NCBI GenBank assembly: GCA_003221515.1
Contig: QHSI01000101.1
Coordinates: 2,753 to 66,752, forward strand
Direction: 5' to 3'
DNA from: Candidatus Rokuibacteriota bacterium
GTDB taxonomy: Bacteria; Methylomirabilota; Methylomirabilia; Rokubacteriales; CSP1-6
DNA: 64,000 bases
Under the pieces are notes generated by a model. The model was not told the DNA's origin and did no database searches. It saw only the letters and a program-made list of their open reading frames with translations. Position 1 is the first letter of the stretch. Each line of letters opens with the position of its first letter. Of the stretch, positions 2,381 through 63,182 are shown in pieces. The translations under genes were made by a program, and so were the position numbers.

Positions 2381-2476
2381 GAGCGAGATCCGATCGAGCG
2401 CCGTCACCGAGCGCCCGTGGCTCTCGAAGGTCACGCTGACTTCGTTCACGACGACTTTGGGTGAGCGTCCCGGCAT
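2381..2476 (-). pseudogene. N-terminal remnant (about 30 codons) of an ABC-transporter ATP-binding protein
   Basis: 'MPGRSPKVVVNEVSVTFESHGRSVTALDRISL' matches the N-terminus of NitT/TauT-type ATPases (vsv.F...g..v.aLd.isL). The Walker A region that should follow is absent: the sequence continues '...RAHAGAARVAG'. Confidence 0.3.
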
Positions 2477-2539
2477 TGATCTCTAAAACGGCGAGCGGCG
2501 GGTCGAGGCAAGATCCCGACCCGTCGCCCGGTGAGGTGA

Positions 2540-3052: not shown

Positions 3053-3151
3053 GGGTGTCCTCCGGGGTGAGTGGATTGTGGGATGTCGCTTCGTTCACTC
3101 GGGGTCGCTGTCGAAGGTTCCCTATACCACACTTGCCTTCGACGGGGATCT

Positions 3152-3397: not shown

Positions 3398-3726
3398 TCG
3401 TGCAGCGATCGAGGAGGCTTCCATGACCCGGATTTGGACGGTCACGATGCGGCTCGCCGCGGCGGACCGGCGCCAAGGCCGACGTGATCCGCCGCGCGGG
3501 CGCATGTGCCCGACCCGAATCTCGAGAGGGATCCCGCGGTGCTCGACTCGATGCAGCGGCTCAGCGGCGAGTACGGCTTCCTCAAGTACAAGGACCTGCT
3601 GCCGCCGGCCAGGCTGTGCAACTTCAGCTACCGCGATCGCGCGGTGGCCGAGCTCGGCAAGAAGTAGCCACGCTCGATCCACACGCGTTCCGGCGCGACG
3701 ACCAGTCGTCGGAACGCTCCCCTCAC

Positions 3727-9183: not shown

Positions 9184-9200
9184 CAGGCCCCCACCCTACG

Positions 9201-11543: not shown

Positions 11544-11560
11544 TTATATAATCCCGCGGC

Positions 11561-12775
11561 ATGAGGATCCTCCTCGGCCCCGGACCCACGATGGCCGATC
11601 CGCGCGTGCTGCGCGCGATGTCGACGCCGCTCCTCGGCCAGTTCGACCCGGAGTTCACGGCGATCATGGGCGAGGTCGTCGAGCTCTCGCGCTTCGCGTT
11701 CCAGACTGCGAACGAGCGCGCGTTCCCGGTGCCGGGCACGGGGCGCGCCGGCCTGGAGGCCGCGATCGTCTCGCTGGTCGAGCCCGGCGATCGGGTCGTC
11801 GTGGCCGAGTGCGGCCGCTTCGGGCTCCTGACGATCGAGATCGCCGAGCGGTGCGGCGCCGAGGTCGTCCCAGTGCGCGGCGAGTGGGGGCGGATCATCG
11901 AGCCAGACGCGATCGCCGCGGCGCTCGAGGGAGGGCGCACCAAGGTCGTTGCGCTCGTCCACGGGGAGACGTCGACCGGCGTGCTCCAGCCACTCGAGGA
12001 GATCGTGCGCCTGGCCCACCAGCACGGCGCGCTGGTCGTCGCCGACTGCGTCGTCACGCTCGGCGGGTGCGAGGTCCCGGTCGACCGGTGGGCCGTCGAC
12101 GTTGCGACCGCCGGCACCCAGAAGTGCCTGAGCTGCCCGTCGGGGCTGGCGCCGGTGACGTTCAGCGCGCGGGCCGAGAGCGTCATCAGAGAACGACGGA
12201 CCAAGATCCGCAGCAACTATCTCGACCTCGGCCAGCTCGCGGACTACTGGAGCCCGGCTCGCTTCAACCATCACACCGCCCCGACCTCGATGGTGTACGG
12301 CTTGCGCGAGGCGCTCTGCGCGGTGCGCGAAGAAGGGCTCGCGGCCCGCTTCGCCCGCCATCGTCTGCACGGCGACGCGCTGCGCGCCGGCATCGACGCG
12401 CTCGGCCTTTCGCTCTTCGGCAAGGAGCCGCCGGAGCGGCGGCTGCCGTTCATCACCCCCGTGGTCGTGCCGGAAGGCGTCGACGAGCTTCGCGTTCGGC
12501 GCCGACTCATCGAGGACTTCGACATCGAGATCGGCGCCGCGTTCGGGCCGCTCCAGGGGAAGATCTGGCGCATCGGCACCATGGGATACTCGGCGCAGCG
12601 ACAGAACATCCTGCTCTGCCTCGGCGCCCTCGAGCATGTGCTGCGCCACGAAGGCGTTCGCACCGCCGCCGGCGCAGGCGTCCACGCCGCGTTGGCCCAC
12701 TACACCGCCGCCGGCGTCACCGGCGTTCTGGACGTCGACGATAACCTCGGCGCAACCGGCATTGGTCGCATATGA
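11561..12775 (+). CDS. Class-V aminotransferase (alanine/serine-glyoxylate type; candidate (S)-ureidoglycine-glyoxylate aminotransferase PucG-like), 404 aa
   Basis: 'MRILLGPGPTMADPRVLRAM...' carries the AGXT-family N-terminus 'LLxPGPT'. 404 aa with no interruptions. Context: between xdh-puuD-uraDH and puuE. Confidence 0.8.
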   Translation: MRILLGPGPTMADPRVLRAMSTPLLGQFDPEFTAIMGEVVELSRFAFQTANERAFPVPGTGRAGLEAAIVSLVEPGDRVVVAECGRFGLLTIEIAERCGAEVVPVRGEWGRIIEPDAIAAALEGGRTKVVALVHGETSTGVLQPLEEIVRLAHQHGALVVADCVVTLGGCEVPVDRWAVDVATAGTQKCLSCPSGLAPVTFSARAESVIRERRTKIRSNYLDLGQLADYWSPARFNHHTAPTSMVYGLREALCAVREEGLAARFARHRLHGDALRAGIDALGLSLFGKEPPERRLPFITPVVVPEGVDELRVRRRLIEDFDIEIGAAFGPLQGKIWRIGTMGYSAQRQNILLCLGALEHVLRHEGVRTAAGAGVHAALAHYTAAGVTGVLDVDDNLGATGIGRI

Positions 12776-12843
12776 CCCCCACGCGCAAGACACCGACGCG
12801 TTCGAGCGCGGGCTTCGCCCGCGCAACTGATCCGGGGGGGAGG

Positions 12844-12876
12844 CCTCGGAGGGGGCCATCGAGGCCCCCTCCGAAG
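12844..12876 (+). promoter_or_regulatory. Strong GC hairpin (13/14-bp stem, 5-nt loop) between the aminotransferase and puuE. Its 3' arm abuts the puuE ribosome-binding site.
   Basis: CCTCGGAGGGGGCC (12844-12857), loop ATCGA, GGCCCCCTCCGAAG (12863-12876). A third copy of GCCCCCCTCCGAG lies at 12892-12905. Confidence 0.5.
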
Positions 12877-12879
12877 AGG

Positions 12880-13881
12880 ATGGGGGGCAAAGCCCCCCTC
12901 CGAGTTGCTTACCCGCGCGATCTCGTCGGCTACGGCAAGACGCCGCCGGATCCGAAGTGGCCGGGCGGAGCCCGGCTCGCGCTCCAGATCGTCATGAACT
13001 ACGAAGAAGGCGGCGAGCGATCGATCCTGCACGGCGACGGCGAGGCCGAGGCGTTCCTGCAGGAAGTCGTGGGCATGCCGGTCTTGAAGCGCGTGCGCAA
13101 CCTTCAGGTCGAGTCGATGTACGAGTACGGGACCCGCGCGGGGTTCTGGCGCCTCATGCGCATCTTCGCCCAGCACGGCGTCAAGATCAGCGTGTTCGCC
13201 GTGGCCATGGCGCTCGAGCGACACCCGGACGCTGCCGCCGCCATCGTCGAGGCCGGGCACGAAGTCGTGAGCCACGGCTGGCGCTGGATCGACTATCAGT
13301 TCGTGAGCGAGAAGGTCGAGCGCGCACACATGCGTCGCGCCGTCGAGAGCCTCACGCGCCTGACCGGCAGCCGCCCGCTCGGCTGGTACACGGGACGCCT
13401 CAGTCCCAATACGCGCCGCCTGGTCGTCGAGGAAGGCGGGTTCCTCTACGACGCCGACGCCTACGACGACGACCTGCCGTACTGGACCCAGGTCTCGGGC
13501 AAGCCGCATCTCGTCGTTCCATATACCCTGGACAACAACGACATGAAGTTCGCGCTGCCCGGCGGGTTCGCCACGGGCGACGAGTGGCTCGCCTACGTCC
13601 GAGACGCCTTCGACCACCTCTACGCCGAAGGTGTCGATCATCCGAAGATGATGTCGATCGGCCTACACATGCGGCTCATGGGACGGCCCGGGCGCGCCGC
13701 CGCGCTCGCGCACTTCCTCGATCACGTCGCGCGGCACGACCGGGTGTGGGTCTGCCGGCGCGTCGACATCGCCCGGCACTGGATGGAGCACCATCCCTAT
13801 CGAGTGGCAGTGCGCGCCGCAGGCCGTCGCGGGGCTGGGGTCCCGCCGGCCGAGGCGCGCGAAGACAGGGAGGCGACCTGA
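12880..13881 (+). CDS. puuE: Allantoinase, PuuE type (polysaccharide-deacetylase fold), 333 aa
   Basis: ATG at 12880 preceded by GAAGAGGA. 'MGGKAPLRVAYPRDLVGYGKTPPDPKWPGGARLALQIVMNYEEGGERSILHGDGEAEAF...' matches the PuuE N-terminus. The 5' portion of the track ORF (12772-12879) is a non-coding run-in. Confidence 0.85.
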   Translation: MGGKAPLRVAYPRDLVGYGKTPPDPKWPGGARLALQIVMNYEEGGERSILHGDGEAEAFLQEVVGMPVLKRVRNLQVESMYEYGTRAGFWRLMRIFAQHGVKISVFAVAMALERHPDAAAAIVEAGHEVVSHGWRWIDYQFVSEKVERAHMRRAVESLTRLTGSRPLGWYTGRLSPNTRRLVVEEGGFLYDADAYDDDLPYWTQVSGKPHLVVPYTLDNNDMKFALPGGFATGDEWLAYVRDAFDHLYAEGVDHPKMMSIGLHMRLMGRPGRAAALAHFLDHVARHDRVWVCRRVDIARHWMEHHPYRVAVRAAGRRGAGVPPAEAREDREAT

Positions 13882-43275: not shown

Positions 43276-43728
43276 TCAGCCCGCCGGGCTCACGTACTCG
43301 TAGTTGGTCTCGAGCGGCACGTACGCGAGCGATTGCCAGCCGCCCACCTTCTTGCTCAGCGCCCACGTGACGGACTTCACGCCGAGCATCACGCCGTAGT
43401 AGCACTTCACGCCCGAGCGGAGCTTGAACGTCCACGTCTTGAGCTCGTTCGACGGCTTCCATTCCGTGGCCAGCCCCGGGCGGTACTCGAAGGTCTTCGG
43501 GTCGCGCGTGATCAGCGAATCGTAGACGCAGTCCCACAGGGGCTTCTCGCCCTGCACGCCGCGCCAGGCGAACGGCGTCTCGGTGCCCCACTGACCGACC
43601 GCGACGACGAGGCGCTCGTTGGGGCCGGCGGTGGCGCGAGCGGGGCGAACGACCGGCGCGCCCATGGCGGCGACGGCCGCGGTGCCCGCCCGCCGCAAGA
43701 AACTTCGGCGATCGATCGAACGAGCCAT
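43276..43728 (-). pseudogene. Truncated family-5 ABC substrate-binding protein gene: Tat signal plus the first about 120 mature residues only
   Basis: 'MARSIDRRSFLRRAGTAAVAAMGAP' is a twin-arginine signal (ribosome-binding site GGAGGA). 'PGLATEWKPSNELKTWTFKLRSGVK' SBP_bac_5 motif. The ORF then ends (about 150 aa against about 530 expected), 9 nt before the next gene. Confidence 0.65.
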
Positions 43729-43858
43729 CGTGATGTCCTCCGAGATCTGCCTCAGCTCACGTACTCGAGCGAGACCGCCTCCACCATGTCCGGTCCGTCG
43801 AGCGCGCAGGTCATCACGAGGCGCCCGAGACGTGCATGGGCAGCTCACATCGTGCGCT

Positions 43859-44422
43859 TCAGTCGTGGCCAGCAGGACCGGTCGGCTGCCCCGAGAGTGG
43901 CTTCAGGCGAAGCAGAAACTGTTGGAGCGGCGTGTCGTGGGTCAACGGAATTTCGCAGTGAGCAATTGGCCGGGCGGGGTTCCCCTGGACCATGGTCATG
44001 GGAGGGACGGAACGGGTGACAATACTCCCCGCGGCGACCACCGCGCCACGGCCGAGCGTCACGTTCGGCAAAATGATGCAGCCCGGGCCGACAAACACTT
44101 CATCTTCGATCCGGACTGAGATGCGATCCTTCATTTGGTCCGGAGATGGCGGATCCCCTTCGAAGTGGGCAATGATCGTTGTGCGCATCCCAATGGCCAC
44201 GTTGTTTCCCAGCTGTACCCATTCAGGGTAGGCAGTCTCAATGAGCACGTCGGTCCCGATATACACGGGAGTCCCCATTTTTACGCCCCGCCATCGGTGC
44301 AGCCTGACCCGCAGAGTGGCCTGCCCTGGCGCGTACAGGGCCAGCACCTGCAGCAAACGGTTCTTGACGCCCCGTAGCCGGGGCTCGGGGGGAAATCGGG
44401 GCCTCTTGTCTCTGGATACCAC
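43859..44422 (-). CDS. Hexapeptide-repeat (left-handed beta-helix) acyl/acetyltransferase, 187 aa
   Basis: '...IGTDVLIETAYPEWVQLGNNVAIGMRTTIIAHFEG...VFVGPGCIILPNVTLGRGAVVAAGSIVTRSVPPMTMVQGNPARPI' shows LbH repeats of the WcaF/MAT type. Confidence 0.8.
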   Translation of the reverse strand: MVSRDKRPRFPPEPRLRGVKNRLLQVLALYAPGQATLRVRLHRWRGVKMGTPVYIGTDVLIETAYPEWVQLGNNVAIGMRTTIIAHFEGDPPSPDQMKDRISVRIEDEVFVGPGCIILPNVTLGRGAVVAAGSIVTRSVPPMTMVQGNPARPIAHCEIPLTHDTPLQQFLLRLKPLSGQPTGPAGHD

Positions 44423-44499
44423 CCGGCCTGCCTCCGAAGGGGTGAAAACCCACGTGGATTTTACCAGTGCCTCACTGGCACCGGCGTGAATTCTCGGAA

Positions 44500-44588
44500 A
44501 TCACCGGCCGGAGGTTCTGGAACCAGTAGGCTAGCTTGGGCTACACTTTTCGATACACGGATGATAGTCACACACACTGTGGACATTT
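44500..44588. promoter_or_regulatory. AT-enriched divergent intergenic region between the acyltransferase (-) and LLM (+) genes; candidate divergent promoters/operator
   Basis: Locally low GC ('ACTTTTCGATACACGGATGATAGTCACACACACTGTGGACATTTGTGAAC') in an otherwise about 68% GC sequence. Contains the 12-bp palindrome GGTTCTGGAACC (about 44513-44524). Confidence 0.4.
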
Positions 44589-45608
44589 GTGAACGTGAAA
44601 GCGAAACACGCTGACGCGGTTGTCGAAATCTTCTCTACCTGTCCCGCCTCGAGTACTACGGATCGGGGGGTCTACGCGCGGGCCGTCGCCGAGGTGGCCC
44701 AGTGGAGCGAGCGCTATGGCCACAAAGGAATCCTCGTCTACACCGACAACTCGCTGATCGATCCGTGGCTCGTCAGCCAGATCATCGTGCAGGCCACGAC
44801 AGCCCTGTGTCCCCTGGTCGCCGTGCAGCCCGCTTATATGCACCCGTACGCGGTCGCGAAGATGGTTGCCACCTTTGGCTATTTGTACGGACGGCGCCTC
44901 TACCTGAACATGGTCGCCGGAGGGTTCAGGAACGATCTCCTCGCCCTGAACGACACGACACCGCACGACAGGCGCTATGACCGCTTGCGCGAGTACACGC
45001 TCATCATCACGCGTCTTCTCACCGGCGCTCCGGTCAGTCTCGAGGGTGAGTTCTACACGGTGAACAGACTCCGCCTGACCCCGGCGCTTCATCCCGAATT
45101 GATGCCCGGGATTTTCGTCTCGGCGTCGTCGGACGCCGGCGTCGCCACCGCCCGAGCACTTGGCGCCACGGCCGTGCACTATCCGAAACCGGCCCACGAA
45201 TACGACAACGCACCCTTGACTGTCGAAGGCGCTGGCATTCGAGTGGGCGTCATCGCGCGCCCGAGTGAGGCGGAAGCGTGGGCGACTGCCCGGCAACGCT
45301 TTCCCGAGGACCGGACGGGCCAGATCACGCACCAACTGGCCATGAAGACGTCCGATTCCGTCTGGCACAAGCAACTCTCCGAGCTAGCTGGCGAGAGTGA
45401 GAACCACCCATACTGGCTGGTGCCCTTCCAGAACTACAAGACGTTCTGCCCTTACCTGGTCGGCAGCTACACGCGCGTTGCCGATGAACTGGCCCGGTAC
45501 ATTATCGCGGGATACCACACGTTCATCCTGGACATTCCGCCCGAAGAGGGGGAACTACATCACACCAATATCGCGTTCTCCCGCGCACGCGAGCAGATGG
45601 CGTCATGA
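44589..45608 (+). CDS. LLM-class (luciferase-like) flavin-dependent oxidoreductase, 339 aa
   Basis: TIM-barrel LLM features ('...GILVYTDNSLIDPWLVSQIIVQATTALCPLVAVQPAYMHPYAVAKMVATF...'). GTG start. The stop overlaps the next gene (ATGA). Confidence 0.75.
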   Translation: MNVKAKHADAVVEIFSTCPASSTTDRGVYARAVAEVAQWSERYGHKGILVYTDNSLIDPWLVSQIIVQATTALCPLVAVQPAYMHPYAVAKMVATFGYLYGRRLYLNMVAGGFRNDLLALNDTTPHDRRYDRLREYTLIITRLLTGAPVSLEGEFYTVNRLRLTPALHPELMPGIFVSASSDAGVATARALGATAVHYPKPAHEYDNAPLTVEGAGIRVGVIARPSEAEAWATARQRFPEDRTGQITHQLAMKTSDSVWHKQLSELAGESENHPYWLVPFQNYKTFCPYLVGSYTRVADELARYIIAGYHTFILDIPPEEGELHHTNIAFSRAREQMAS

Positions 45609-47200
45609 CTCGGTTGCTGCAGGGATGGATCACTGAGCACGCGGAACGCCGACCGAGCTCCACGGCGCTGGTCATGCACGACGAGCACCTCAGCTATGAA
45701 CAGATCGAAGCGCGGACGAACCAGCTGGCGAGGATGCTCAAGGCCATCGGCTGCCTGCGAGGAGACCGGGTCGCGCTGCTCATGGGCAAGTCGCCGACGG
45801 CGATCGTCGCGATCCTGGGGATCCTCAAGGCTGATTGTATCTACGTACCCCTCGATCCGGCGAGTCCCGTTCCCCGGCTTGCCCACATGGTCGCCAGCGC
45901 AGAGCCTCGATGCATCCTGGCAGCGGGCCCGACGGCCGCCCTGCTGGACGCTCTGCGGGCGGCCCAACAATCCTCTCGCTCGATCGCCATCGGGTGGATG
46001 GAGCGCGAAACGGTCGCCGGGACACAGGTCACCGCAGCGTTCTCGAGGAACGATGTCGACAGCTGCGCCGCGACACCCTTGGCATACCGCAATGGTCCAC
46101 AGGACACGGCGTATATTCTCTTCACCTCCGGTTCCACCGGCGTCCCCAAGGGAGTGCCGATCACGCACTCTAACGTGGCGCACTTCATCGCATGGGCGAC
46201 TCGGTACTTCGGCATCAGCCCCTCGGACCGGATCTCTGGCCATCCGCCCCTGCACTTCGATCTGTCCGTCTTCGACATCTTCGGGACCTTTGCCGCTGGA
46301 GCCCAGCTTCATCTGGTACCCCACGACCTGACGCTTCTGCCCATTCGACTGGCTCACTTCATTACCACCTCGGAGTTGACCCAGTGGTTCTCGGTCCCAT
46401 CCCTTCTCACGTACATCGCGAAATTCGACGCCATTCCGGCAAATGGCTTCCCAGCGTTGAAGCGCCTCCTCTGGTGCGGAGAGGTGCTGCCGACACCCGT
46501 CCTGATGTACTGGATGAAGCGCCTCCCGTCCGTGAGCTTCACGAACCTCTACGGTCCCACGGAGGCGACGATCGCGAGCAGCTACTACACGGTCCCGACC
46601 TGCCCGGACGATCCGACGGCGCCGATTCCGATCGGGACCGCGTGCGATGGTGAAGAACTGCTCGTTCTCGATGAACGCCTGCAGCCGGTCAGGCCCGGGC
46701 AGACGGGCGATCTGTATATCCGCGGGGTGGGACTCAGTCCGGGCTACTGGCGAGACCCAGAAAAAACACGGACCGCTTTTCTCGCCAACCCGAACAGCCG
46801 CGATCCGTCGGATCGCGTCTACAAAACCGGCGACCTCGCCCGCCTCGGAGGCGACGGCGCCGTCTATTTCCTCGGTCGTGCGGACTCGCAGATCAAGACC
46901 CGCGGCTACCGGATCGAGTTGGGTGAGATCGAGACACATCTGCATGCTCTCCCGCAGCTCAAAGAATCGGCCGTGGTCGCGATCAACACCGATGGATTCG
47001 AGGGCGCCACGATCTGCTGCGCGTACGTGCCCGCTCCCGGCGCCGCGGTGACACCGGCGGCGCTCCGCCAGGAGCTGGCGAAGACCCTGCCGTCCTATAT
47101 GTTGCCGGCCGGCTGGCGGATGTTCGACGCACTCCCCAAGAACGAGAACGGAAAGGTCGATCGACGCCAATTGATGGACGACTTCGGTAGAGATCGCTGA
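45605..47200 (+). CDS. Stand-alone adenylation (AMP-binding) enzyme, DltA-like/NRPS A-domain-like, 531 aa
   Basis: Core motifs 'LFTSGSTGVPKGV', 'NLYGPTEATI', 'YKTGDLAR', 'GRADSQIKTRGYRIELGEIE'. No condensation or thioesterase domain. Confidence 0.85.
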   Translation: MTRLLQGWITEHAERRPSSTALVMHDEHLSYEQIEARTNQLARMLKAIGCLRGDRVALLMGKSPTAIVAILGILKADCIYVPLDPASPVPRLAHMVASAEPRCILAAGPTAALLDALRAAQQSSRSIAIGWMERETVAGTQVTAAFSRNDVDSCAATPLAYRNGPQDTAYILFTSGSTGVPKGVPITHSNVAHFIAWATRYFGISPSDRISGHPPLHFDLSVFDIFGTFAAGAQLHLVPHDLTLLPIRLAHFITTSELTQWFSVPSLLTYIAKFDAIPANGFPALKRLLWCGEVLPTPVLMYWMKRLPSVSFTNLYGPTEATIASSYYTVPTCPDDPTAPIPIGTACDGEELLVLDERLQPVRPGQTGDLYIRGVGLSPGYWRDPEKTRTAFLANPNSRDPSDRVYKTGDLARLGGDGAVYFLGRADSQIKTRGYRIELGEIETHLHALPQLKESAVVAINTDGFEGATICCAYVPAPGAAVTPAALRQELAKTLPSYMLPAGWRMFDALPKNENGKVDRRQLMDDFGRDR

Positions 47201-47203
47201 GAG

Positions 47204-47455
47204 ATGGCCAGGAATATGCGGTTGTGCAACCGACTCACCCAGTTCTTTCGCGACAAGCTCTACCTTGAGGTTCCGTCACCCGACACGGACCTGATCGAGG
47301 CGGGCCTGCTCGATTCTCTGAATTTCGCTCAGTTGATGGTCCACATCGAACAGGAATTCGCCATGCACATCTCTCCGGAGGACCTCGAGTTCGATCACTT
47401 TCGCACCATTGCGAAGATCGCAGCCTTTGTCGCAACCAGGTGGCTGGGCTCTTGA
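47204..47455 (+). CDS. Acyl/peptidyl carrier protein (DltC-like), 83 aa
   Basis: Phosphopantetheine attachment motif 'GLLDSLNFAQL'. Immediately follows the adenylation gene. Confidence 0.8.
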   Translation: MARNMRLCNRLTQFFRDKLYLEVPSPDTDLIEAGLLDSLNFAQLMVHIEQEFAMHISPEDLEFDHFRTIAKIAAFVATRWLGS

Positions 47456-48384
47456 ACATCCTTTTAGTCGCGGAAGAGTCGGCCGGCATCCGCCTGCTCC
47501 GCGCATTGCTCCGTACGGAACATCGGATCGTCGCCGTCATGACGAGCACCACCGGGCCCAGCAAGACGTCGAGCATGGCCTCGGTCGCCACCAGGGCGGG
47601 GCTGGACATCTGGCCACCCTCCCGCGTCCGGGATCCGGCGCTTGCGCGAGAGCTGCGGGCCGCAGGCGTGGATCTGATCCTGAACGCTCATTCTCTCTAT
47701 CTCATCCACGAGGAGGTTCTCCGCGCACCGTCGATCGCGGCCTTCAATCTTCATCCCGGGCCGCTGCCCCGATACAGTGGCCTGAACTGCCCGAGCTGGG
47801 CCATCTATCGGGCCGAGCGCACGTACGGCGTCACGGTCCACCGCATGTCGCCACGCATCGACGCCGGGCCGATCGCCTATCAGACGACCTTCGATATCGA
47901 CGAGGCGGCAACTGGGTTCACCTTGACGGCCAAGTGCGTCAGCGTTGGCGTGCCGCTGATGCGGCAACTGGTTGAGGTCGCGGCCCGGGATCCCGCAGCG
48001 ATTCCTGCAATCGAGCAGGACGTCGGGCAGCGGAAGTACTTCGGTCGTGAGGTTCCGCGCAACGGCGCACTCATCTGGTCGGAGTCCGCGAGTCAGATCG
48101 CCAGATTCGTCCGAGCCTTCGATTACTATCCGTTCGCCTCGCCATGGGGGCATCCGCAAGCTCTGTACGAAGGGCAGCACATCGGTGTCGTGAAGGCCGT
48201 CCAAACCCGGGCCAAGACCGGGACGCCTCCGGGGACACTGCGGCGAGGACCGTCAGGGATCATGGAAGTTGCCGCCGCCGACGAATGGCTGGCGTTGCAC
48301 CTGGTCCATGCCGGCGGCAGACACATCAGGCCCGATCAGCTCCTACGTGATGGAACGCGCTTGGAGGATGGGACAAAAACGTGA
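47440..48384 (+). CDS. Formyltransferase (Fmt/ArnA-N-terminal-like: N-terminal Formyl_trans_N plus C-terminal domain), 314 aa
   Basis: GTG start overlapping the carrier-protein stop. 'ILNAHSLYLIHEEVLRAPSIAAFNLHPGPLPRYSG' corresponds to the formyltransferase catalytic HxSLLPxxRG region. Confidence 0.8.
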   Translation: MAGLLNILLVAEESAGIRLLRALLRTEHRIVAVMTSTTGPSKTSSMASVATRAGLDIWPPSRVRDPALARELRAAGVDLILNAHSLYLIHEEVLRAPSIAAFNLHPGPLPRYSGLNCPSWAIYRAERTYGVTVHRMSPRIDAGPIAYQTTFDIDEAATGFTLTAKCVSVGVPLMRQLVEVAARDPAAIPAIEQDVGQRKYFGREVPRNGALIWSESASQIARFVRAFDYYPFASPWGHPQALYEGQHIGVVKAVQTRAKTGTPPGTLRRGPSGIMEVAAADEWLALHLVHAGGRHIRPDQLLRDGTRLEDGTKT

Positions 48385-48467
48385 ACTGTCGATACGGCCG
48401 AGTCCTACGGTACCGAAGAGATCGTCGGCAAAGCAAGGCGTGCGGATCTGTGCGCTTGACGAGACCA

Positions 48468-48535
48468 TGAACGTCCACGTCTTGAGCTCGTTCGAGGGCT
48501 TCCACTCGGTCGCCAGGCCCGGGCGGTCTTCTCGG
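48468..48535 (-). pseudogene. About 22-codon relic of a family-5 substrate-binding-protein gene, paralogous to 43425-43487
   Basis: Minus-strand translation 'EDRPGLATEWKPSNELKTWTF' is identical at protein level to the truncated binding protein at 43.4 kb. The DNA differs at 6 positions, all synonymous third positions. No further homology on either side. Confidence 0.55.
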
Positions 48536-57500: not shown

Positions 57501-58178
57501 CTATCGTACCCGAGCTGTCTTCTCGAGCAGCGCGGGCAGCTCCGTGAGATCGGCGATCTCGAAATCGGGCGGCGGCACGTCGGCGCGTCGCGGGCGACGG
57601 TCGCGATTCACCCACACGACCCTCATCCCCGCGGCCTTCGCGCCGCTGACGTCGTCGACCTCGCTGTCGCCGACGTGCAGGACATCGTGCGGCTCCAGTC
57701 CCAGGCGCTCGAGCGCCCGCCTGAACATCATCGGGTGCGGCTTGTAGGCGCGCACGGCTTCGGAGATCAGGATGAACTCGACGGGGAGCGTGAAGGGCCA
57801 GGACGCGACGTGTTCCTGGTCGGCGTTGGAGACGACCGCCGACCGCAGGCCGCCGAGCGCGCCCAGGACCTCGAGCGTTTCCGGATAGAGCTCCACCCGG
57901 GTGGTCACGTCGAAGAAGAGGTCGACGTAGCGGGACGCGTCGGCGCCGATACCGAGCTGGGTCAGCAGCTTCCCCAAGTTCTGGGCCTCGAGCTCTCGGA
58001 GGGTGCGGAACGGGAGGATCTGGCTCTCGCGATAGTAGGCCTCGGCCCAGAGGCGATACACCTCGTCGACGGAGACCGACAATCCGTGATCGGCCACGAT
58101 GCGGCTCGGGACGAGTCTCAGGTCCTCGTTGCGCAGCAGCGTGCCATATGCGTCGAACGTTACGGCTTTGATGGACAT
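57501..58178 (-). CDS. HAD-superfamily hydrolase (haloacid dehalogenase-like), 225 aa
   Basis: 'MSIKAVTFDAYGTLL' is HAD motif I (DxYGT). 'VGDSEVDDVSGAKAAGMRVVWVNR' is motif III/IV. ATG at 58178 after GGAGG. The remainder of the 753-aa track ORF is an artefact. Confidence 0.8.
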   Translation of the reverse strand: MSIKAVTFDAYGTLLRNEDLRLVPSRIVADHGLSVSVDEVYRLWAEAYYRESQILPFRTLRELEAQNLGKLLTQLGIGADASRYVDLFFDVTTRVELYPETLEVLGALGGLRSAVVSNADQEHVASWPFTLPVEFILISEAVRAYKPHPMMFRRALERLGLEPHDVLHVGDSEVDDVSGAKAAGMRVVWVNRDRRPRRADVPPPDFEIADLTELPALLEKTARVR

Positions 58179-58256
58179 CCGCCAATAGCCTCCGCGCGGA
58201 GGATACAGGAACTTCTGGTAGGATCTCCAGAGCGGTCGAAGAATGGGGGCTCGACG

Positions 58257-59288
58257 ATGAACATCTTCAAGGCGCTGGCGGTGAAGGACGTCGACGAGGC
58301 CACGAAATCGATCCCGCTGATCGACGTCGGGCCGGCGTTCCGGGACGAGCCGGGGGCGCGTGACCGCGTGGCGGCCGAGGTCCGGCGCGCGTGCGAGAGC
58401 GTCGGCTTCTTCTACCTGGCCGGCCACGGCGTGCCGCAGGGGCTGGTCGACGGCGCGTTCGCGGCCTCGCGCGAATTTCACGCGATCCCCCTCCCCAACA
58501 AGCTCGCGCTCAAGATCAACGAGAACAACGTCGGCTACCTGCCGGTGAATCAGAGCATGCAGCGGGCCTCGACGGTCCACAAGGCGACCCGGCCCAACTA
58601 CAACGAGAGCTTCTTCATCAGCCACGACCGGAGCGCGGACCATCCGGACGTCGTGGCCGGACGCCCGCTCAGAGGCCGAAACCAGTGGCCCGCTGGCCAC
58701 GACGCGATGAGGGCGGCGATGGTCCGCTACTTCAAGACCATGGAAGGCCTGGGCGAGCGAGTATTGCCTCTGCTCGCGCGGGCGCTCGACATGCCGGCGG
58801 GACACTTCGGGCCGTTCTTCACCAACGAGGCGCACATCAATCTGCGCTTCCTGCACTACCCGCCGCAGGAGACCGACGACGAGGAGCAGTTCGGTCAGGG
58901 GCCCCACACCGACAACTCGTTCATCACGATGCTCGCGCGAGAGGACGTGCCCGGGCTCGCGGTCCGCCTCCCCAGCGGCGAGTGGCTCGCCCCGCCGGTG
59001 ATCCCGGGCACCTTCCTGGTCAACCTCGGCAACATCATGAAGCGCTGGTCGAACGACCGCTTTCTGTCGACGCCGCACGGGGTGCTGAACGACTCCGGCA
59101 CGGACCGCTACTCGATCGCGTTCTTCTACAGCCCGAACATCGAGGCGGCCATCGAATGCCTGCCGACGTGCGTGAGCGCGAGCGAGCCGGCGCGCTATCC
59201 GCGCGCGGTGTACGGGGACCTGGTGCTGGACTTCTACAACGCCAACTACTTCCATCGGAAGGACTACACCGCCGCCGCCGGAGATTGA
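58257..59288 (+). CDS. 2-oxoglutarate/Fe(II)-dependent oxygenase (isopenicillin-N-synthase-like family), 343 aa
   Basis: 'MNIFKALAVKDVDEATKSIPLIDVGPAF' is the DIOX_N start. HxD...H facial triad 'GPHTDNSF...STPHGV'. 'RYSIAFFYSP' 2OG-binding motif. Confidence 0.85.
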   Translation: MNIFKALAVKDVDEATKSIPLIDVGPAFRDEPGARDRVAAEVRRACESVGFFYLAGHGVPQGLVDGAFAASREFHAIPLPNKLALKINENNVGYLPVNQSMQRASTVHKATRPNYNESFFISHDRSADHPDVVAGRPLRGRNQWPAGHDAMRAAMVRYFKTMEGLGERVLPLLARALDMPAGHFGPFFTNEAHINLRFLHYPPQETDDEEQFGQGPHTDNSFITMLAREDVPGLAVRLPSGEWLAPPVIPGTFLVNLGNIMKRWSNDRFLSTPHGVLNDSGTDRYSIAFFYSPNIEAAIECLPTCVSASEPARYPRAVYGDLVLDFYNANYFHRKDYTAAAGD

Positions 59289-59330
59289 CGCGAGAACCGG
59301 CGCCGCCATCTGCTTCACCAGAGCGATCCG

Positions 59331-60134
59331 GTGCTGGCCAGCGTGGCTGCCGAGCCAAGTAAGTGGATCTATGGAGGGTTCGCGCTGGAGTATCGTGGGT
59401 GGGTGACCGGTGTTCCCCGCCCCCCCGACGGGTGTGCCCAAGACGTCGAGCTCGTGCGGCTGGCGCTGACCGGCGAGGGGGTCGACGTCGCGCTGCTCGA
59501 CGTGGAGCACCTGGCCGACATCGAGTCGACAGCAGCGCGCTACCTGACGCCGTTGGAGCGCGAGGAATACGCCGGGCTCAGGCTCGAGACCCGCCGACGG
59601 GAGTGGCTTGCAGCGCGTGTCTGCCTCAAGACGATGCTGCTGGAGCGGCGCTGCGTCAGCGACCCGACCCGGTGCGCGATCGTGAAGGACGCGGCCGGAC
59701 GACCGCGGCTCGTCTTTGCCGAGCCGCCCGCAGAATCCGTGCACGACTGCTCGCTCTCGCACAAGGGGCGGTTCGCGTGCGCCGGCGCCTCACGCCTGGC
59801 CGCCACCCGCCTCGGGGTCGACATCGAGGAGATTTCCCCTCGCCTGCTGCGGATCGAGCGCGCCTTCGCGCGTGACCGCGACCGCCCGTTTCGAGCCCGG
59901 CCGACGCAGGAGCGGCTGGCGCTGCTCTGGGCGCTGAAGGAAGCGTGCGCCAAGGCGGTCGGCAGCGGGCTCGGGTTCGCGATGGGCGCCGTGAGCTGCG
60001 AGGAGGCGGAGGAGGGTCGGCATCACGTGAGGACCGAGGACGGCCGGCAGTTCCGCGGACGCCACGTCGTCCACGATGGCTACGTCGTCGCACTGTGCCT
60101 GACCGAGGACGAACCCTGCGCCGGGGTCGAGTAA
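59331..60134 (+). CDS. 4'-phosphopantetheinyl transferase, Sfp/EntD type, 267 aa
   Basis: 'SLSHKG' and 'LWALKEACAKAVGSG' (W/FxxKEAxxK) PPTase motifs. Confidence 0.8.
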   Translation: MLASVAAEPSKWIYGGFALEYRGWVTGVPRPPDGCAQDVELVRLALTGEGVDVALLDVEHLADIESTAARYLTPLEREEYAGLRLETRRREWLAARVCLKTMLLERRCVSDPTRCAIVKDAAGRPRLVFAEPPAESVHDCSLSHKGRFACAGASRLAATRLGVDIEEISPRLLRIERAFARDRDRPFRARPTQERLALLWALKEACAKAVGSGLGFAMGAVSCEEAEEGRHHVRTEDGRQFRGRHVVHDGYVVALCLTEDEPCAGVE

Positions 60135-61849
60135 GCCGGGCGGCGCGTCGCTCGCCGTCGGACTCGCTCCAGCGTCGCCTGTACGCGCAGCGTGAGCGCG
60201 ACGCCAACGCGCGCGCGATCGCGTTCGTCGACGCCGGCGGCGAGATCCGCTGGCGGACCTGGCGGGAGCTCTTCGAGGGGGCGACCGGCTACGCGCACTG
60301 GCTAGCCGAGGCGGGCTTGCGCCCCGGAGACGTCGCGGTGCTCGCGGTCCCGAGCGACGAGGCGTGCGCCCGAGCGCTCATGGGCGCTCTCCTCGTCGGC
60401 GCCGTTCCGCTGCTCGTCGCGCCGCCGGCGTTCCAGGACGCGAGCTCACACTTGCTTCAAGTCCTGGTCCGCACGTCGCGGCGCGCGAGGGCCCGGATCG
60501 CCCTCGTGCCCGCGGGCACCGCGGGGCTCGTTGCGCCGCACCGCAGACCCCGGACGCGGTTGCTGACCCTGCCCGAGCACGGGGTGGCGCCGTCGGCGGA
60601 CCCACTCCCGGTCGTGCAGCCGCCGACCGAACGGATAGGCGCCATGCAACTGACGTCGGGGACGACGGGGTTCCCGCGCATCTGCGTGTGGAAGCACCGG
60701 GGGATCCTGGCGGCGCTCGACGGCATGCGCGGGGCGATGAAGCTCTCGTCGCGCGACGTGTGCTTCAACTGGACGCCGCTCCATCACGACATGGGACTCG
60801 TCAATAACTTCTTCCTGTGTCTGGCCAGCGGCGTGCCCGTCGTCATGGCGCGGCCGCAAGATTTCATCCGCCGGCCCGCGCTCTGGCTGCGAGGACTCTC
60901 GGAGACGCACTCGACGGTCACGTGGTCGCCGAACTTCGGCTTCGTGGTGGCGACTAAGCGGATCCGCGACGACGAGCTCGAGGGCGTGCGCCTCGACGAG
61001 GTGCGCGGCTTCTACAATGCCGCCGAGCGCATCCACCTCGATAGCCTACAGAACTTCTACAAGCGCTTCGCGCCGCTCGGCGTTCGCCAGGAAGCGCTCA
61101 AGACCAACTTCGGGTGCGCCGAGAACGCCGGTGGCGCCACCTTCAGCGCGCCCGACGGCATGTACGTCCACGAGCTCGTGGATCGCGCGTTGCTCCACGA
61201 GAAGGGCGTCGCCCGGCCGGTGACGGGCGGCGAGGAGTCGGGCGCCGTGCCGGTCGTCGGCGTGGGACGTCCGGCTCCGGGGATCCGCGTCGCGGTGTTC
61301 TCGTCCGCGGGACGACGGCTACGCGATGGTCACGTCGGCGAGCTCGCGCTCGACACGCCGTCTCGGATGGTCGGCTACCTCCGCCAGCGCCGCGAGACTC
61401 GGCGCGCGCTCTCCCGCAAGTGGCTGCGGACCGGGGATCTGGCCTACGTCCGAGGCCGCGAGGTGTTCTGGGTCGGCCGCCGGCGCGAGCGTATCACCGT
61501 GCGCGGGCGCAAGTTCGATCCGAGCGATTTCGAGCAGATCCTCTTCGGCATTCCCGGGCTTCGGACCGGCTGCTTCGCGGCGTTCGGCATCGACGACGAG
61601 ACCTGTGGGACCCAGCGACTGGTGATCGTCGCCGAAGTGCAGGAAGCGGCGGCGGATGGCGCCCGCGGCCTGCTGGAGCAGATCAGGGAGCGCGTGTCAC
61701 TCCAGCTCGGCGTCGGTGCCGACGAGGTCGTGCTGGTGAAATCCGGAACGCTGACCAAGACGTCCAGCGGCAAGCGGCGGCACCGGTTCTTCCACCAGGC
61801 TTACCTGGACGGCAGCCTGCGCGCGCACACGCTGCCGCTCGGCTCCTGA
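60134..61849 (+). CDS. Fatty-acyl-AMP ligase-like AMP-dependent synthetase (FAAL/FadD family); start codon unresolved
   Basis: 'MQLTSGTTGFPRICV', 'WTPLHHDMGLVNNFFLCLASG', 'FGCAENAGGATF', 'WLRTGDLAYV', 'GRRRERITVRGRKFDP'. There is no canonical in-frame start between the PPTase stop (60132-60134) and the conserved core. The only in-frame ATG (59945) would overlap the PPTase gene by 190 nt. Confidence 0.7.
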   Translation, partial: SRAARRSPSDSLQRRLYAQRERDANARAIAFVDAGGEIRWRTWRELFEGATGYAHWLAEAGLRPGDVAVLAVPSDEACARALMGALLVGAVPLLVAPPAFQDASSHLLQVLVRTSRRARARIALVPAGTAGLVAPHRRPRTRLLTLPEHGVAPSADPLPVVQPPTERIGAMQLTSGTTGFPRICVWKHRGILAALDGMRGAMKLSSRDVCFNWTPLHHDMGLVNNFFLCLASGVPVVMARPQDFIRRPALWLRGLSETHSTVTWSPNFGFVVATKRIRDDELEGVRLDEVRGFYNAAERIHLDSLQNFYKRFAPLGVRQEALKTNFGCAENAGGATFSAPDGMYVHELVDRALLHEKGVARPVTGGEESGAVPVVGVGRPAPGIRVAVFSSAGRRLRDGHVGELALDTPSRMVGYLRQRRETRRALSRKWLRTGDLAYVRGREVFWVGRRRERITVRGRKFDPSDFEQILFGIPGLRTGCFAAFGIDDETCGTQRLVIVAEVQEAAADGARGLLEQIRERVSLQLGVGADEVVLVKSGTLTKTSSGKRRHRFFHQAYLDGSLRAHTLPLGS

Positions 61850-61896
61850 GTCGCGTGGCCTCGGGCTGCCGGCTCGATCGAGCTGACAGGAGACCC

Positions 61897-62148
61897 TCAG
61901 GGCTGGAGCTTCCGGCCGACGAAGTCGGCGATGCACTGGATGCTCTCGAAGTTCCGCTTGAGGATCTCTTCGTCGCGGATCTGCACCCCGAACCGGTCTT
62001 CCAGGAAGGTTGCGAGCTCGAAGATCCCCATCGAGTCGATGATGCCGGAGGCGAAGAGGGAATCGTCGTCGGCGACCTTCGGCTCGCCGTGGCGCCCCGC
62101 CGACTTCGCCTCGATGAACTGCCGCACTCCCGCCACCACGTCGCTCAT
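61897..62148 (-). CDS. Acyl carrier protein, 83 aa
   Basis: 'DDDSLFASGIIDSMGIFELATFLEDRFGV' is the ACP Ser-containing motif (IDSMG). Confidence 0.8.
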   Translation of the reverse strand: MSDVVAGVRQFIEAKSAGRHGEPKVADDDSLFASGIIDSMGIFELATFLEDRFGVQIRDEEILKRNFESIQCIADFVGRKLQP

Positions 62149-62261
62149 GCGATTCCTCGTCGTCCGCGCGCAGCCTCGAGAGCGGGCGCGATCGCATCCA
62201 GACTGTTGCGTACACTATAGCCGACGCGATGGCTCGGCGGCGAAGGCGTGGTCGTCGGGGC

Positions 62262-63182
62262 TCAGGCGCGCCGCCCTCCGGTCAGCATGCGGAGGAACGC
62301 CGGCGCCAGCCGCGGGTCGAGCGTGTCGCGCACGCCGTCGCCGAAGAGGTTGAAGGCCAGCACGGTGACGGTGATGGCGAGCCCGGGGAAGAACACCAGC
62401 CACCAGCGCGGCACCAGCGAGGTCAGCGAGTCGGCGAGCATGTTGCCCCACGTCGGGGTCGGGGGTGGGATGCCGACTCCGAGGAAGCCGAGCGCCGCCT
62501 CGATGATGATCGCCACGCCGAGGTGCGCCGTGGCCAGCACGAGGTAGGGCGCCACGCACTGGGGAAGGACGTGGTGGAACATCACGCGAGGCTCCGAGCT
62601 ACCGGCGGCGCGTGCCGCCTCGACGTACGAGAGCTCGCGCACGGTCAGGGCGACCGAGCGGATCACGCGATTGCCAAAGGGGATCCGGGTGACCGCGATC
62701 GCGATGATCACGGCCGGCATGCCCGTGCCGATGGCCATCGAGATGGCCATGGCGAGGATCAGGTCGGGAAACGACTGGAGGACCTCCGTGATCCGCTGGC
62801 TCACCAGGTCGAAGCGCCCGCCGAGGTAGCCGCTGGCCACGCCCCAGAGCGAGCCGACCGTGGTGCCGAGCAGCACGGACGCGAACGCGACGACCAGCGA
62901 CGAGCGCGAGCCGTAGATCACCCGGCTCAACGTGTCGCGACCGACCTGGTCGGTGCCGAAGAAGCTGTGGGCGTCGGGCGGCTTGGCCATTCGGCGGAAA
63001 TCGGCCTTCAGCGGATCGGACGGCGCGATGAGCGGCGCGGTGAGGGCCATCACGACGATGAGGAAGCCGACCAGGCCGCCGGCCGCCGCCAGCGGGTTGC
63101 GGCGGGTGAAGGCCGCGAGCTCCCGCGCGACTGGCGGGGCCCCAGCCCCTCGACGTGCTGCGGCTCGCACGACCAGTCCCAC
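62262..63182 (-). CDS. ABC transporter permease (DppC/OppC-like), 306 aa
   Basis: '...FGTDQVGRDTLSRVIYGSRSSL...[18 protein letters not shown]...'. Confidence 0.85.
   Translation of the reverse strand: MGLVVRAAARRGAGAPPVARELAAFTRRNPLAAAGGLVGFLIVVMALTAPLIAPSDPLKADFRRMAKPPDAHSFFGTDQVGRDTLSRVIYGSRSSLVVAFASVLLGTTVGSLWGVASGYLGGRFDLVSQRITEVLQSFPDLILAMAISMAIGTGMPAVIIAIAVTRIPFGNRVIRSVALTVRELSYVEAARAAGSSEPRVMFHHVLPQCVAPYLVLATAHLGVAIIIEAALGFLGVGIPPPTPTWGNMLADSLTSLVPRWWLVFFPGLAITVTVLAFNLFGDGVRDTLDPRLAPAFLRMLTGGRRA

Follow-up and report, generated by a model that had tools for sequence, protein, structure and literature searches.

Near the oppC permease gene of the 64-kb window (the whole stretch of DNA analysed), a gene for a FAAL-like ligase appears to lack a start codon, which raises the question of how this gene and its carrier-protein partners came to be there and whether they still work. 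The five genes described by the first-pass annotation were all recovered where it had placed them by ORF, Pfam and NCBIfam analysis: a HAD-superfamily hydrolase (57501-58178, reverse strand; PF00702, 75 bits; Pfam and NCBIfam), an IPNS-family 2OG/Fe(II) oxygenase (58257-59288, forward strand; PF14226 and PF03171; Pfam), an Sfp-type 4'-phosphopantetheinyl transferase (PPTase; ORF 59331-60134, forward; PF01648, 59 bits), the FAAL-like ligase (ORF 59945-61849, forward; best NCBIfam match, fatty acyl-AMP ligase PRK09192, 271 bits) and an 83-aa ACP, here ACP83 (61897-62148, reverse; PF00550, 27 bits, cut-off 20.8). An OppC-type ABC permease (62262-63182, reverse; Pfam and NCBIfam) forms the right-hand chromosomal flank.

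The only start-like codons in the FAAL frame are GTG 59945 and GTG 60095, both within the PPTase gene, and then TTG 60317, which falls within the conserved core. The reported absence of ATG, GTG or TTG after the PPTase stop at 60134 is correct as far as TTG 60317; the wider statement that the FAAL has no canonical start holds between the PPTase stop and the core but not further upstream, where the canonical GTG 60095 lies 40 nt before the PPTase stop. Gene calls in the ENA and JGI copies of the locus place the start at this codon, giving a 584-aa protein (60095-61849, forward). The earlier suggestion of a start within the PPTase gene was therefore borne out, with GTG 60095 as the sole workable start, whereas a rare-codon start was not, since the L091 alignments and homology boundaries place a deletion junction where the start codon is missing. 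By blastn, window positions 60135-61877 matched 1748-3496 of the related locus L091, 60135 being one base past the PPTase stop, and the L091 FAAL start codon and first ~9 codons had no counterpart in the window. The alignment indicates that the native start and about nine N-terminal codons of the FAAL were deleted at this junction. Translation would now begin at GTG 60095, out of frame with the PPTase in the last 40 nt of its gene, and is probably coupled to that of the PPTase. No Shine-Dalgarno sequence was found ahead of GTG 60095.

The PPTase showed a similar history at its 5' end. The earlier assignment to the Sfp type was upheld by the PF01648 match and by an alignment in which all invariant residues were retained, including GVDIE and WALKEACAK, and the enzyme is intact; dN/dS against L100 was 0.24. 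Homology to relatives spans 59435-60134 only, and the native start position directly 5' of it (~59432-59434) now reads GGG TGT, which is not a start and points to loss of the native codon at a deletion junction. Translation must now start at GTG 59331 (267 aa) or GTG 59403 (243 aa). A short segment at 59320-59393 (forward) was 84% identical by blastn to L121 5662-5732 and L127 8653-8723, where it belongs to an HMG-CoA-synthase-like (HMGS-like), KASIII-like gene. Its peptide LASVAAEPSKWIYGGFALEYRGW aligns with LLASVVAESSKWIYGGFVLEYVG, followed by the stop, at the end of the relatives' gene, and in the window the stop codon is mutated to TGG, so that the frame reads into the PPTase ORF. This stub evidently derives from the 3' end of an HMGS-like gene in an ancestral beta-branching cassette, and the PPTase would now be read from a GTG inside it or just past it. 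PPTase relatives at 66-85% identity always lie in the order ECH, PPTase, ACP105, KS. In one variant (L099), the PPTase was frameshifted by a 44-nt deletion.

ACP83, with the serine motif GIIDSM, has retained its native start and a GAGGAA Shine-Dalgarno sequence, and is 94% identical to the L091 ACP83 and 63% to its L007 counterpart. In 53 of the 80 species loci its family adjoins the same FAAL family, which confirms the proposed FAAL and ACP pair as genuine and conserved and marks ACP83 as the cognate partner of this FAAL family. The gene had been described as divergent; it is present, but convergent with the FAAL, lying downstream of the oppB/oppC permease genes in the same orientation. The 47-nt spacer between FAAL and ACP83 (61850-61896) matches the L091 FAAL 3' flank over its left ~28 nt and the 3' flank of the L091 ACP83 over its right ~14 nt, and window 61883-62248 matches L091 12918-13308 (blastn). 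These alignments indicate that the two ends of the L091 FAAL-ACP83 interval were joined here by deletion of ~9.4 kb. Between ACP83 and oppC, blastn and alignments revealed a second stub (about 62200-62248, reverse), the 3' end of a CysQ-like gene (inositol-monophosphatase family, PAP phosphatase-type). In L115 and L091, which both retain more of it, this gene is located upstream of ACP83; the L115 ORF contains WIIDPLDGT and terminates in RRAIASAIV, and the window stub encodes the same RRAIASAIV with its stop mutated.

What was lost can be read from the relatives. L127, whose 2OG oxygenase is 92% identical, has the order DioxC, HAD, 2OG, KS, AT, type III PKS, ECH, HMGS-like, ECH, SDR, ECH, PPTase, ACP104; it is collinear with the window, from which 5.7 kb and 2.3 kb of L127 are missing. 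In L091 (FAAL 87% identical), the FAAL stop is separated from the convergent ACP83 by a type II FAS-like gene block of ~9.4 kb, comprising PEMT, VTT, two ADH, KR, KS, DH, KR, two KS and ACP84. FAAL orthologues 68-70% identical in L007, L090 and L101 are also embedded in KS/KR/DH/ADH clusters, and the cluster-embedded state is therefore ancestral. Between the conserved flanks, L127 has the cluster in full, the window and L115 have it in part, and L128 has only the PPTase. In the rest of the 64-kb window, Pfam detected no KS, type III PKS or condensation domain, and L091 cluster proteins other than ACP83 gave no tblastn match. The window has kept no KS, type III PKS, condensation domain or acyltransferase that could act as a downstream acceptor.

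The data make it very likely that 59.3-62.25 kb is the remnant of a large lipid/polyketide cluster, most of which this soil bacterium has deleted. Three of its genes are intact in the window (PPTase, FAAL and ACP83), together with the HMGS-like and CysQ-like stubs. The ancestral cluster would have filled the 2OG-to-opp interval and been reduced by at least five deletions. Its type II FAS-like block would have comprised three KS, two KR, a dehydratase, two ADHs resembling enoyl reductases, and one ACP. Alongside it would have stood a type III PKS, a beta-branching (HMGS/ECH) cassette, the PPTase and the FAAL, each with an ACP of its own (the 83-aa ACP in the case of the FAAL), membrane proteins resembling PEMT and DedA, and a sulfotransferase with the CysQ-like PAP phosphatase. 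The type III PKS half is represented by L127, L121 and L122 and the FAAL half by L091 and L115; shared flanks, rather than one continuous sequence, suggest that the halves once formed a contiguous supercluster. The deletions would have taken the native start codons of PPTase and FAAL alike, and the FAAL seems to lack a start because the surrounding cluster was mostly deleted and a junction removed the native one.

The annotation had instead read the HAD, 2OG, PPTase, FAAL and ACP genes as a working second module that cooperates with a cluster at 43.9-48.4 kb in the synthesis of a lipo-amino-acid product, N-formylated or oxidised and possibly linked to metals. The two gene sets do lie 10 kb apart on one contig in several independent assemblies of the species, and both carrier proteins could in principle be activated by one Sfp-type PPTase; L128 keeps its PPTase without the cluster, so the enzyme may have clients elsewhere. 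Distant FAAL loci (L021, L027 and L044) also hold an A-domain homologue of 35-39% identity, directly beside a carrier-protein match in L021 and L027. However, when co-occurrence was checked, no other species examined held the LLM, A domain, PCP, formyltransferase and LbH set of 43.9-48.4 kb together with this FAAL or PPTase, and no condensation or N-acyltransferase enzyme connects the two sets. Because its base composition differs (GC 0.62 vs. 0.69) and a 65-nt direct repeat bounds it inside a disrupted SBP gene, the 43.9-48.4 kb set appears to be of separate origin, a low-GC insertion unrelated to the trio.

Nor do the neighbouring genes behave as module members. The 2OG oxygenase has the HxD...H and RxS motifs, and its homologues number 2824 at E<=1e-30, with 77-93% identity among the top ones. 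2OG and HAD gave zero matches in the 80 FAAL loci of other species. The 2OG gene is syntenic both in L127, where the cluster is complete, and in L128, where it is nearly absent; HAD lies beside 2OG in L127 and is absent from L128, where 2OG is kept. The HAD protein, taken earlier for a phosphatase, carries DAYGT rather than DxDxT and best matches a type II haloacid dehalogenase, and so does not belong to the phosphatase type. OppC is syntenic in L128 and L115, and the FTR1 iron permease, once seen as a hint of a metal-related function, belongs with the cupredoxin gene to a syntenic flank. Synteny marks 2OG, HAD, the dioxygenase, Opp and FTR1 as ordinary conserved chromosomal flanks, present regardless of the cluster, and a joint pathway with the 43.9-48.4 kb set is highly improbable.

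The window FAAL was compared with known systems. Its best solved-structure match was E. coli FAAL 3pbk (E=4e-49), and every NCBIfam model scored under its own cut-off. It shares the FAAL hallmarks of an insertion region, a FAAL-specific helix and a blocked CoA pocket, with the helix and the bulky pocket residues equivalent to EcFAAL W224, M231 and F279 conserved, although its identity to characterised FAALs is low. Mycobacterial FadD32, FadD28 and FadD23 (E=1e-26 to 1e-35) belong to the same class, in which acyl-AMP is transferred to a carrier protein, but FadD32 and FadD28 are not orthologues (NCBIfam scores of 164 bits for FadD32, cut-off 975, and 131 bits for FadD28, cut-off 1100), and unlike the mycobacterial systems the window FAAL has no PKS partner. 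A Rv2949c-like chorismate pyruvate-lyase adjoins this FAAL family in 29 of 80 loci, in other phyla, and is absent from the Rokubacterial clade; the adjacency is reminiscent of the p-hydroxybenzoate/FadD22 logic in phenolic glycolipids. The free-standing FAAL beside a small free-standing ACP recalls CylA/CylB of the cylindrocyclophanes and JamA with its ACP of the jamaicamides. The relatives' FAAL/ACP pair would belong to a cluster with a type III PKS and an HMGS/ECH beta-branching cassette, the same logic as for the cylindrocyclophanes, whose biosynthesis couples a stand-alone FAAL to type III PKS machinery (PMC11837247). In contrast to those pathways, the extending enzymes are gone in the window, the relatives' extenders are discrete type II-like KS, KR, DH and ER rather than type I PKS modules, and their tailoring proteins are a sulfotransferase, CysQ, PEMT and DedA-like proteins.

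Given a deletion origin, selection may have kept the trio as a streamlined loading unit, expressed from captured start codons through transcription that runs on from the 2OG and opp operons, with the acyl-ACP feeding another pathway elsewhere in the genome. Alternatively, the ORFs may be intact merely through the recency of the deletions, translation having ceased and decay being still to come. The survivors are exactly the self-sufficient acyl-ACP-forming trio, the deletion edges hug their ORFs, and ACP83 kept its own translation signals. Of the 133 family columns with >=95% conservation, the FAAL retains 132, and ten window-type copies are free of stops and frameshifts. Across four window-type variants, the FAAL carried 16 synonymous and 20 non-synonymous changes, a non-synonymous to synonymous ratio lower than neutrality predicts (p=0.018). 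Conserved sites were avoided by the non-synonymous changes (1/21, p=0.03). The ratio was nevertheless raised over that of the flanking genes (p=0.024), and Y230H replaces a tyrosine conserved at >=95%; the FAAL is intact, under constraint that is relaxed yet still present. The low synonymous divergence among window-type copies (0.02-0.03) implies that little time has elapsed, as silent pseudogenes would require, and the lost native starts and upstream regions of PPTase and FAAL and the L099 frameshift fit them as well; on the other hand, the stop loss in the stub re-opened the PPTase ORF, which looks like rescue rather than decay. Against retention by selection stand the missing acceptor enzyme in the window, the relaxed constraint on the FAAL, the bare GTG 60095, the L099 frameshift and the dispensability of FAAL and ACP83 in the syntenic relative L128. 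Retention as a loading unit is a serious candidate that falls just short of even; silence with decay to follow is a plausible but doubtful account.

Several observations bear on the state of the trio in general. Three complete ORFs survived cleanly as a coherent unit, and the FAAL has neither stop nor frameshift across variants, its non-synonymous changes sparing conserved sites, which speaks against passive debris. The loss of both native starts, the absence of a Shine-Dalgarno sequence ahead of GTG 60095, FAAL Y230H and the L099 PPTase frameshift speak against full function. As in other in-situ BGC erosion, stubs mark the deletion junctions, native starts are lost and content varies between flanks; in contrast to decaying BGCs, the survivors are non-random, forming a full PPTase-FAAL-ACP unit in which some purifying selection still shows.

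The case is one of ordinary cluster decay, and "relic" describes the origin of the trio, not necessarily a loss of function. The trio appears biochemically self-consistent: the PPTase would yield holo-ACP, and the FAAL would activate a carboxylic acid by adenylation before loading holo-ACP with it. Read-through transcription from the 2OG gene may extend into PPTase and FAAL, and together with that from the opp genes on the other side it may keep the trio expressed. We consider it marginally the better bet that the trio continues to function, and it may still form acyl-ACP.

The five genes listed by the first-pass annotation were all recovered by ORF, Pfam and NCBIfam analysis: a HAD-family hydrolase (57501-58178, minus strand), an IPNS-type 2OG oxygenase (58257-59288, plus strand), an Sfp-type PPTase (ORF 59331-60134, plus strand), a FAAL-like ligase (ORF 59945-61849, plus strand) and an 83-aa ACP, ACP83 (61897-62148, minus strand). 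The host is an uncultured soil Rokubacterium (Methylomirabilota), and the base composition of the window is about 69% GC. An identical locus was found on NCBI contig QHSW01000134.1 and on several CRIT18, ENA and JGI scaffolds; the same layout in more than 10 independent assemblies and samples ruled out misassembly as the source of the odd arrangement. A promoter and terminator scan of 57.3-62.4 kb yielded nothing above the shuffle expectation.

The 2OG oxygenase matched PF14226 (DIOX_N, 96 bits) and PF03171 (2OG-FeII_Oxy, 84 bits), and its translation contains HTD, TPH and RYS, the HxD...H iron triad and RxS 2OG-binding motif of the IPNS family. The PPTase (PF01648, 59 bits; homologues of 230-240 aa) carries the GVDIEE and WALKEACAKAVG motifs, corresponding to the Sfp-type signatures GxD(I/V)E and W/FxxKE(A/S)xxK, and keeps 57 of the 57 invariant columns of the PPTase alignment A2. 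A natural fusion of this PPTase family to a C-terminal PP-binding (carrier) domain was observed in protein P0128 (356 aa). ACP83 is a free-standing type II ACP with a GIIDSMGIFEL serine motif (PF00550, 27.1 bits; cut-off 20.8). No NCBIfam model matched it at equivalog level: AmcB gave 43 bits (cut-off 80) and the OlsHI ACP 36 bits (cut-off 130). The hydrolase, previously called a phosphatase, does not bear out that name: its motif I reads FDAYGTL, with Tyr where the phosphatase DxDx(T/V) motif has its second Asp (the general acid/base), and its best NCBIfam model was the type II haloacid dehalogenase TIGR01428 (94 bits, under the 125-bit cut-off). Between the window and L100, a strain variant of the locus, this gene (L100 7406-8080) was 90% identical with a dS of 0.20, compared with 96-98% and 0.02-0.06 for its neighbors, which suggests local recombination or a divergent allele.

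The ligase has the ANL-superfamily adenylation fold (PF00501, 131 bits). Its top NCBIfam models were PRK09192 (FAAL, 271 bits) and MbtM (FAAL-type, 203 bits); PRK07768, by name a long-chain-fatty-acid--CoA ligase subfamily, was nearly tied at 270 bits. Every NCBIfam model scored under its curated cut-off, and there is no characterized orthologue. The closest solved structures were EcFAAL (3pbk, E=4e-49) and then LpFAAL of L. pneumophila (3kxw). In a HMMER alignment with EcFAAL as the comparison sequence, the insertion region (query ~345-395) showed only 1-2-residue gaps, so the FAAL-specific N-terminal-domain insertion, for which an alignment check had been proposed, appears to be present. EcFAAL has a FAAL-specific helix, T252-R258, and bulky residues W224, M231 and F279 that block the CoA pocket (PMC8460268). 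The window segments NW-TPLHHDM-GL, PQDFIRRP and SPNFGF align to EcFAAL SW-LPFYHDM-GL, TQDFAMRP and APPFGY, and both the helix and the three pocket-blocking residues are kept. Judged by sequence, the ligase is a genuine FAAL that resembles FAALs more closely than acyl-CoA ligases.

The FAAL family (~570 aa, 44-57% identity) is well conserved and occurs in many phyla, in MAGs only. When all ORFs were clustered, an ACP of the ACP83 family was present in 53 of 80 species-level FAAL loci, usually directly upstream of the FAAL on the same strand, and the proposed FAAL and ACP pair is thus a conserved partnership. This adjacency is supportive of the predicted transfer of acyl-AMP to holo-ACP with rejection of CoA, and the pair would work like the stand-alone FAAL/ACP loaders CylA/CylB and JamA (PMC11837247). 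The HAD, 2OG, PPTase, dioxygenase and OppC genes had zero tblastn matches in the 80 FAAL loci.

Two other contexts were observed in the family. A Rv2949c-like chorismate pyruvate-lyase (PF01947) and a PaaK-like ligase followed the FAAL in 29/80 genome loci and 13/23 metagenome loci (L014, L017, L021, L030, L031, L036 and others), from many uncultured phyla, often with a 4-nt FAAL/PF01947 overlap and often also with DAHP synthase, a Trp-halogenase-like flavoenzyme and CysN/CysD. This widespread cassette is apparently undescribed and may produce hydroxybenzoate-derived, halogenated or sulfated lipids; a literature search found no paper describing a FAAL/chorismate-lyase/sulfotransferase cassette or Rokubacterial FAAL clusters. 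In 22/80 loci (L018 (=L009), L029, L032, L045, L049 and others), the ACP and FAAL lay beside a membrane protein of ~840 aa with a C-terminal SGNH-like region, or beside AlgX/SGNH proteins in polysaccharide loci, a context that by analogy resembles a Dlt-like carrier-dependent acylation system.

The suggestion of a lipid-starter module held for the FAAL and ACP themselves and failed for a complete module in a working cluster, since no acceptor lies nearby. Among the window ORFs scanned with Pfam, none had a domain of an acyl-ACP acceptor (KS, type III PKS, C domain or acyltransferase), and tblastn of the cluster proteins of the relative L091 against the window matched only ACP83. The other window genes encode xanthine-dehydrogenase-family enzymes, urate oxidase, hydantoinases, HpaB, Opp-type transporters and the like. 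Acceptor enzymes are present in the clusters of relatives.

In L091, whose FAAL is 87% identical, the order is sulfotransferase (minus strand), FAAL, PEMT, DedA/VTT, two Zn-ADH, KR, KS, MaoC-DH, KR, KS, KS and ACP84, followed by a convergent 83-aa ACP 94% identical to ACP83. By blastn, window 60135-61877 corresponded to L091 1748-3496 and window 61883-62248 to L091 12918-13308; this split match indicates that the 47-nt FAAL-ACP spacer represents the joined ends of a ~9.4 kb interval. Upstream of ACP83 the window retains roughly 50 nt from the 3' end of a CysQ-like (IMPase-family) gene, of which more is present in L115 and L091; the right flank of L115 reads FAAL, ACP83, CysQ-like gene, oppC. 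More distant FAAL orthologues (L007, L090 and L101; 68-70% identity) lie within KS/KR/DH/ADH clusters with sulfotransferase or PAPS-synthesis genes.

The PPTase gave a similar picture. Its relatives (66-85% identity) always occur in the order KS, AT, type III PKS, ECH, HMGS-like, (ECH), SDR, ECH, PPTase, ACP~105, KS and onward. Homology to them begins at 59435, directly 3' of the position of the native start codon, which is lost in the window (GGG TGT); the C-terminus is native. Upstream, 59320-59393 is 84% identical to the final 70 nt of the HMGS-like gene, and the stub peptide LASVAAEPSKWIYGGFALEYRGW matches LLASVVAESSKWIYGGFVLEYVG followed by the stop (*). The stop codon of the stub has become TGG, so that the HMGS-like stub reads in frame into the PPTase.

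Intact Rokubacterial cluster(s) were found at L127 3454-11938, L121, L122 1178-16711 and L091 327-13372. They contain KS, AT, type III PKS, an HMGS-like/ECH cassette, PPTase and ACP, 3HCDH, DedA, PEMT, a methyltransferase and glycosyltransferases, and alongside these FAAL, a type II FAS-like block, a sulfotransferase and the CysQ-like gene; we found no paper describing them. From the shared flanks, we infer that a single contiguous supercluster once comprised both the type III PKS half and the FAAL half; in L101, the 10 kb upstream of the FAAL contained no type III PKS half. The ancestral cluster recalls the logic of cylindrocyclophane biosynthesis, with a FAAL, a beta-branching cassette and a type III PKS (PMC11837247), but unlike that system it consists of discrete type II-like enzymes with sulfation genes.

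The chromosomal slot itself was compared in two close relatives. L127 (2OG 92% identical) is collinear with the window and carries a dioxygenase gene (DioxC, minus strand), HAD (minus) and 2OG (plus), then a complete type III PKS/HMGS/PPTase cluster, of which 5.7 kb and 2.3 kb are absent from the window. L128 (2OG 85% identical, on a 441-kb contig) shares the flanks of the window, cupredoxin through Meth_synt_2, and between its 2OG and oppC (9001-12915) lie a solute-binding protein and the PPTase alone. L127, the window and L128 thus represent one slot in three states: full, trio (PPTase, FAAL and ACP83) with stubs, and PPTase only. The stubs set the direction of change as deletion. Origin of the locus as a cluster relic is well supported, and we hold it to be highly probable.

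These junctions bear on the FAAL start codon. As had been noted, the FAAL frame has no ATG, GTG or TTG after the PPTase stop at 60134 until TTG 60317, in the conserved core; the only others are GTG 59945 and GTG 60095, both within the PPTase gene. In the FAAL alignment A1, distant homologues begin 2-4 residues ahead of an invariant 'SLQ', which requires a start upstream of 60146, and FAALs of the Rokubacterial clade have a variable Arg-rich N-terminal extension ending in 'RRxxxDSLQ'. Initiation at a rare codon past the PPTase stop was ruled out because the sole near-cognate, CTG 60179, sits beyond the invariant Gln of this motif. Of the two earlier proposals, a start inside the PPTase gene is therefore the one that stood. 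A start at GTG 59945, the NCBI call (634 aa), is an unlikely choice, as the protein would gain 50 Arg/Gly-rich residues that overlie the conserved PPTase C-terminus in another frame and have no counterpart in homologues; GTG 60095 gives 584 aa (the ENA/JGI call). A PPTase-FAAL fusion by -1 frameshifting would fit the -1 frame of the FAAL, but was rejected, since no X XXY YYZ slippery heptamer occurs in the overlap at 60095-60134. GTG 60095 spans conserved PPTase Leu-Cys codons out of frame and has no Shine-Dalgarno sequence ahead of it; it is a pre-existing codon that L124 also has. FAAL homology to L091 begins at 60135, one base past the PPTase stop, indicating that the native start and ~9 N-terminal codons were deleted; the start appears missing because the deletion junction lies at the stop codon of the preceding gene.

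The first-pass annotation had also joined this region to the 43.9-48.4 kb gene set as a split pathway. That set (genes 43859-48384) lies in a low-GC block at 43420-48527 (GC 0.62-0.63 vs ~0.69) and encodes an LbH acetyltransferase, an LLM oxidoreductase, a stand-alone A domain, an 83-aa PCP and an ArnA/Fmt-like formyltransferase. On both sides of the block stands a 65-nt direct repeat (43420-43484 and 48463-48527, 89% identical) that stems from an SBP_bac_5 gene; this gene is disrupted and truncated to ~150 aa at 43276-43848. The arrangement recurs in many independent assemblies and resembles the outcome of an insertion or recombination event in a paralogous opp-like operon. Among 111 loci of other species with the FAAL or PPTase, tblastn found no match for the LLM protein, one weak match for the formyltransferase and an A-domain homologue in 3 (35-39% identity); the two sets do not co-occur there, and the split pathway is not supported. 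The FTR1 genes, taken as a hint of metal-related function, belong with cupredoxin to the syntenic flank.

Whether the trio still functions is close to an even call. In favor of function, the FAAL keeps 132 of the 133 columns that are ≥95% conserved across the family (sole change Y230H), no FAAL copy has a stop or frameshift, and both the start and the Shine-Dalgarno sequence of ACP83 are retained. Comparison of the FAAL across the window, L098, L099 and L100 gave 16 synonymous and 20 non-synonymous changes; the latter were fewer than the neutral expectation (p=0.018) and avoided conserved columns (1/21, p=0.03). L115, with 12 non-synonymous and 0 synonymous differences, was left out as a case of FAAL decay, because all of these lie in ~110 nt (L115 1-110) at the end of a short contig and are likely assembly error. 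Counting against function are a non-synonymous to synonymous ratio in the FAAL above that of its flanking genes (which had 57 synonymous and 27 non-synonymous changes; p=0.024), the loss of both native starts (PPTase and FAAL), the lack of a Shine-Dalgarno sequence at GTG 60095 and a 44-nt deletion at L099 ~655-660 (window 59661-59704) that frameshifts the PPTase in this population variant. At least that strain would then do without the PPTase, unless the contig contains an assembly error. A further point against function is that L128 has dispensed with FAAL and ACP83; its retained PPTase suggests PPTase clients outside the lost cluster.

A selective explanation would be that the lineage kept a self-sufficient PPTase/FAAL/ACP unit with re-wired expression. 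After the loss of tens of kb of the cluster (at least ~18 kb directly mapped) in at least five deletions, the PPTase would initiate within the remnant of a deleted gene that has lost its stop codon, the FAAL would begin at the pre-existing GTG within the PPTase gene, flanking housekeeping operons would drive both, and acyl-ACP would still be made for a new, unlinked acceptor. We consider this unlikely; if true, the unit would be a case of natural pathway minimization in which start codons were captured and a 40-nt gene overlap arose. The window locus represents ordinary cluster erosion, and the interesting chemistry is encoded in the relatives.

The result averts a false lead, as genome-mining tools or readers would take the locus for an orphan lipid-starter module or for part of a split lipopeptide pathway although its extending and tailoring enzymes have been deleted, and it provides a sequence-level explanation for a gene without a start codon. 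The slot in three states in related uncultured Rokubacteria is useful for the study of biosynthetic cluster erosion, and it points to where the intact, uncharacterized cluster, with its type III PKS, HMGS cassette, FAAL, type II FAS-like block and sulfotransferase, could be recovered.
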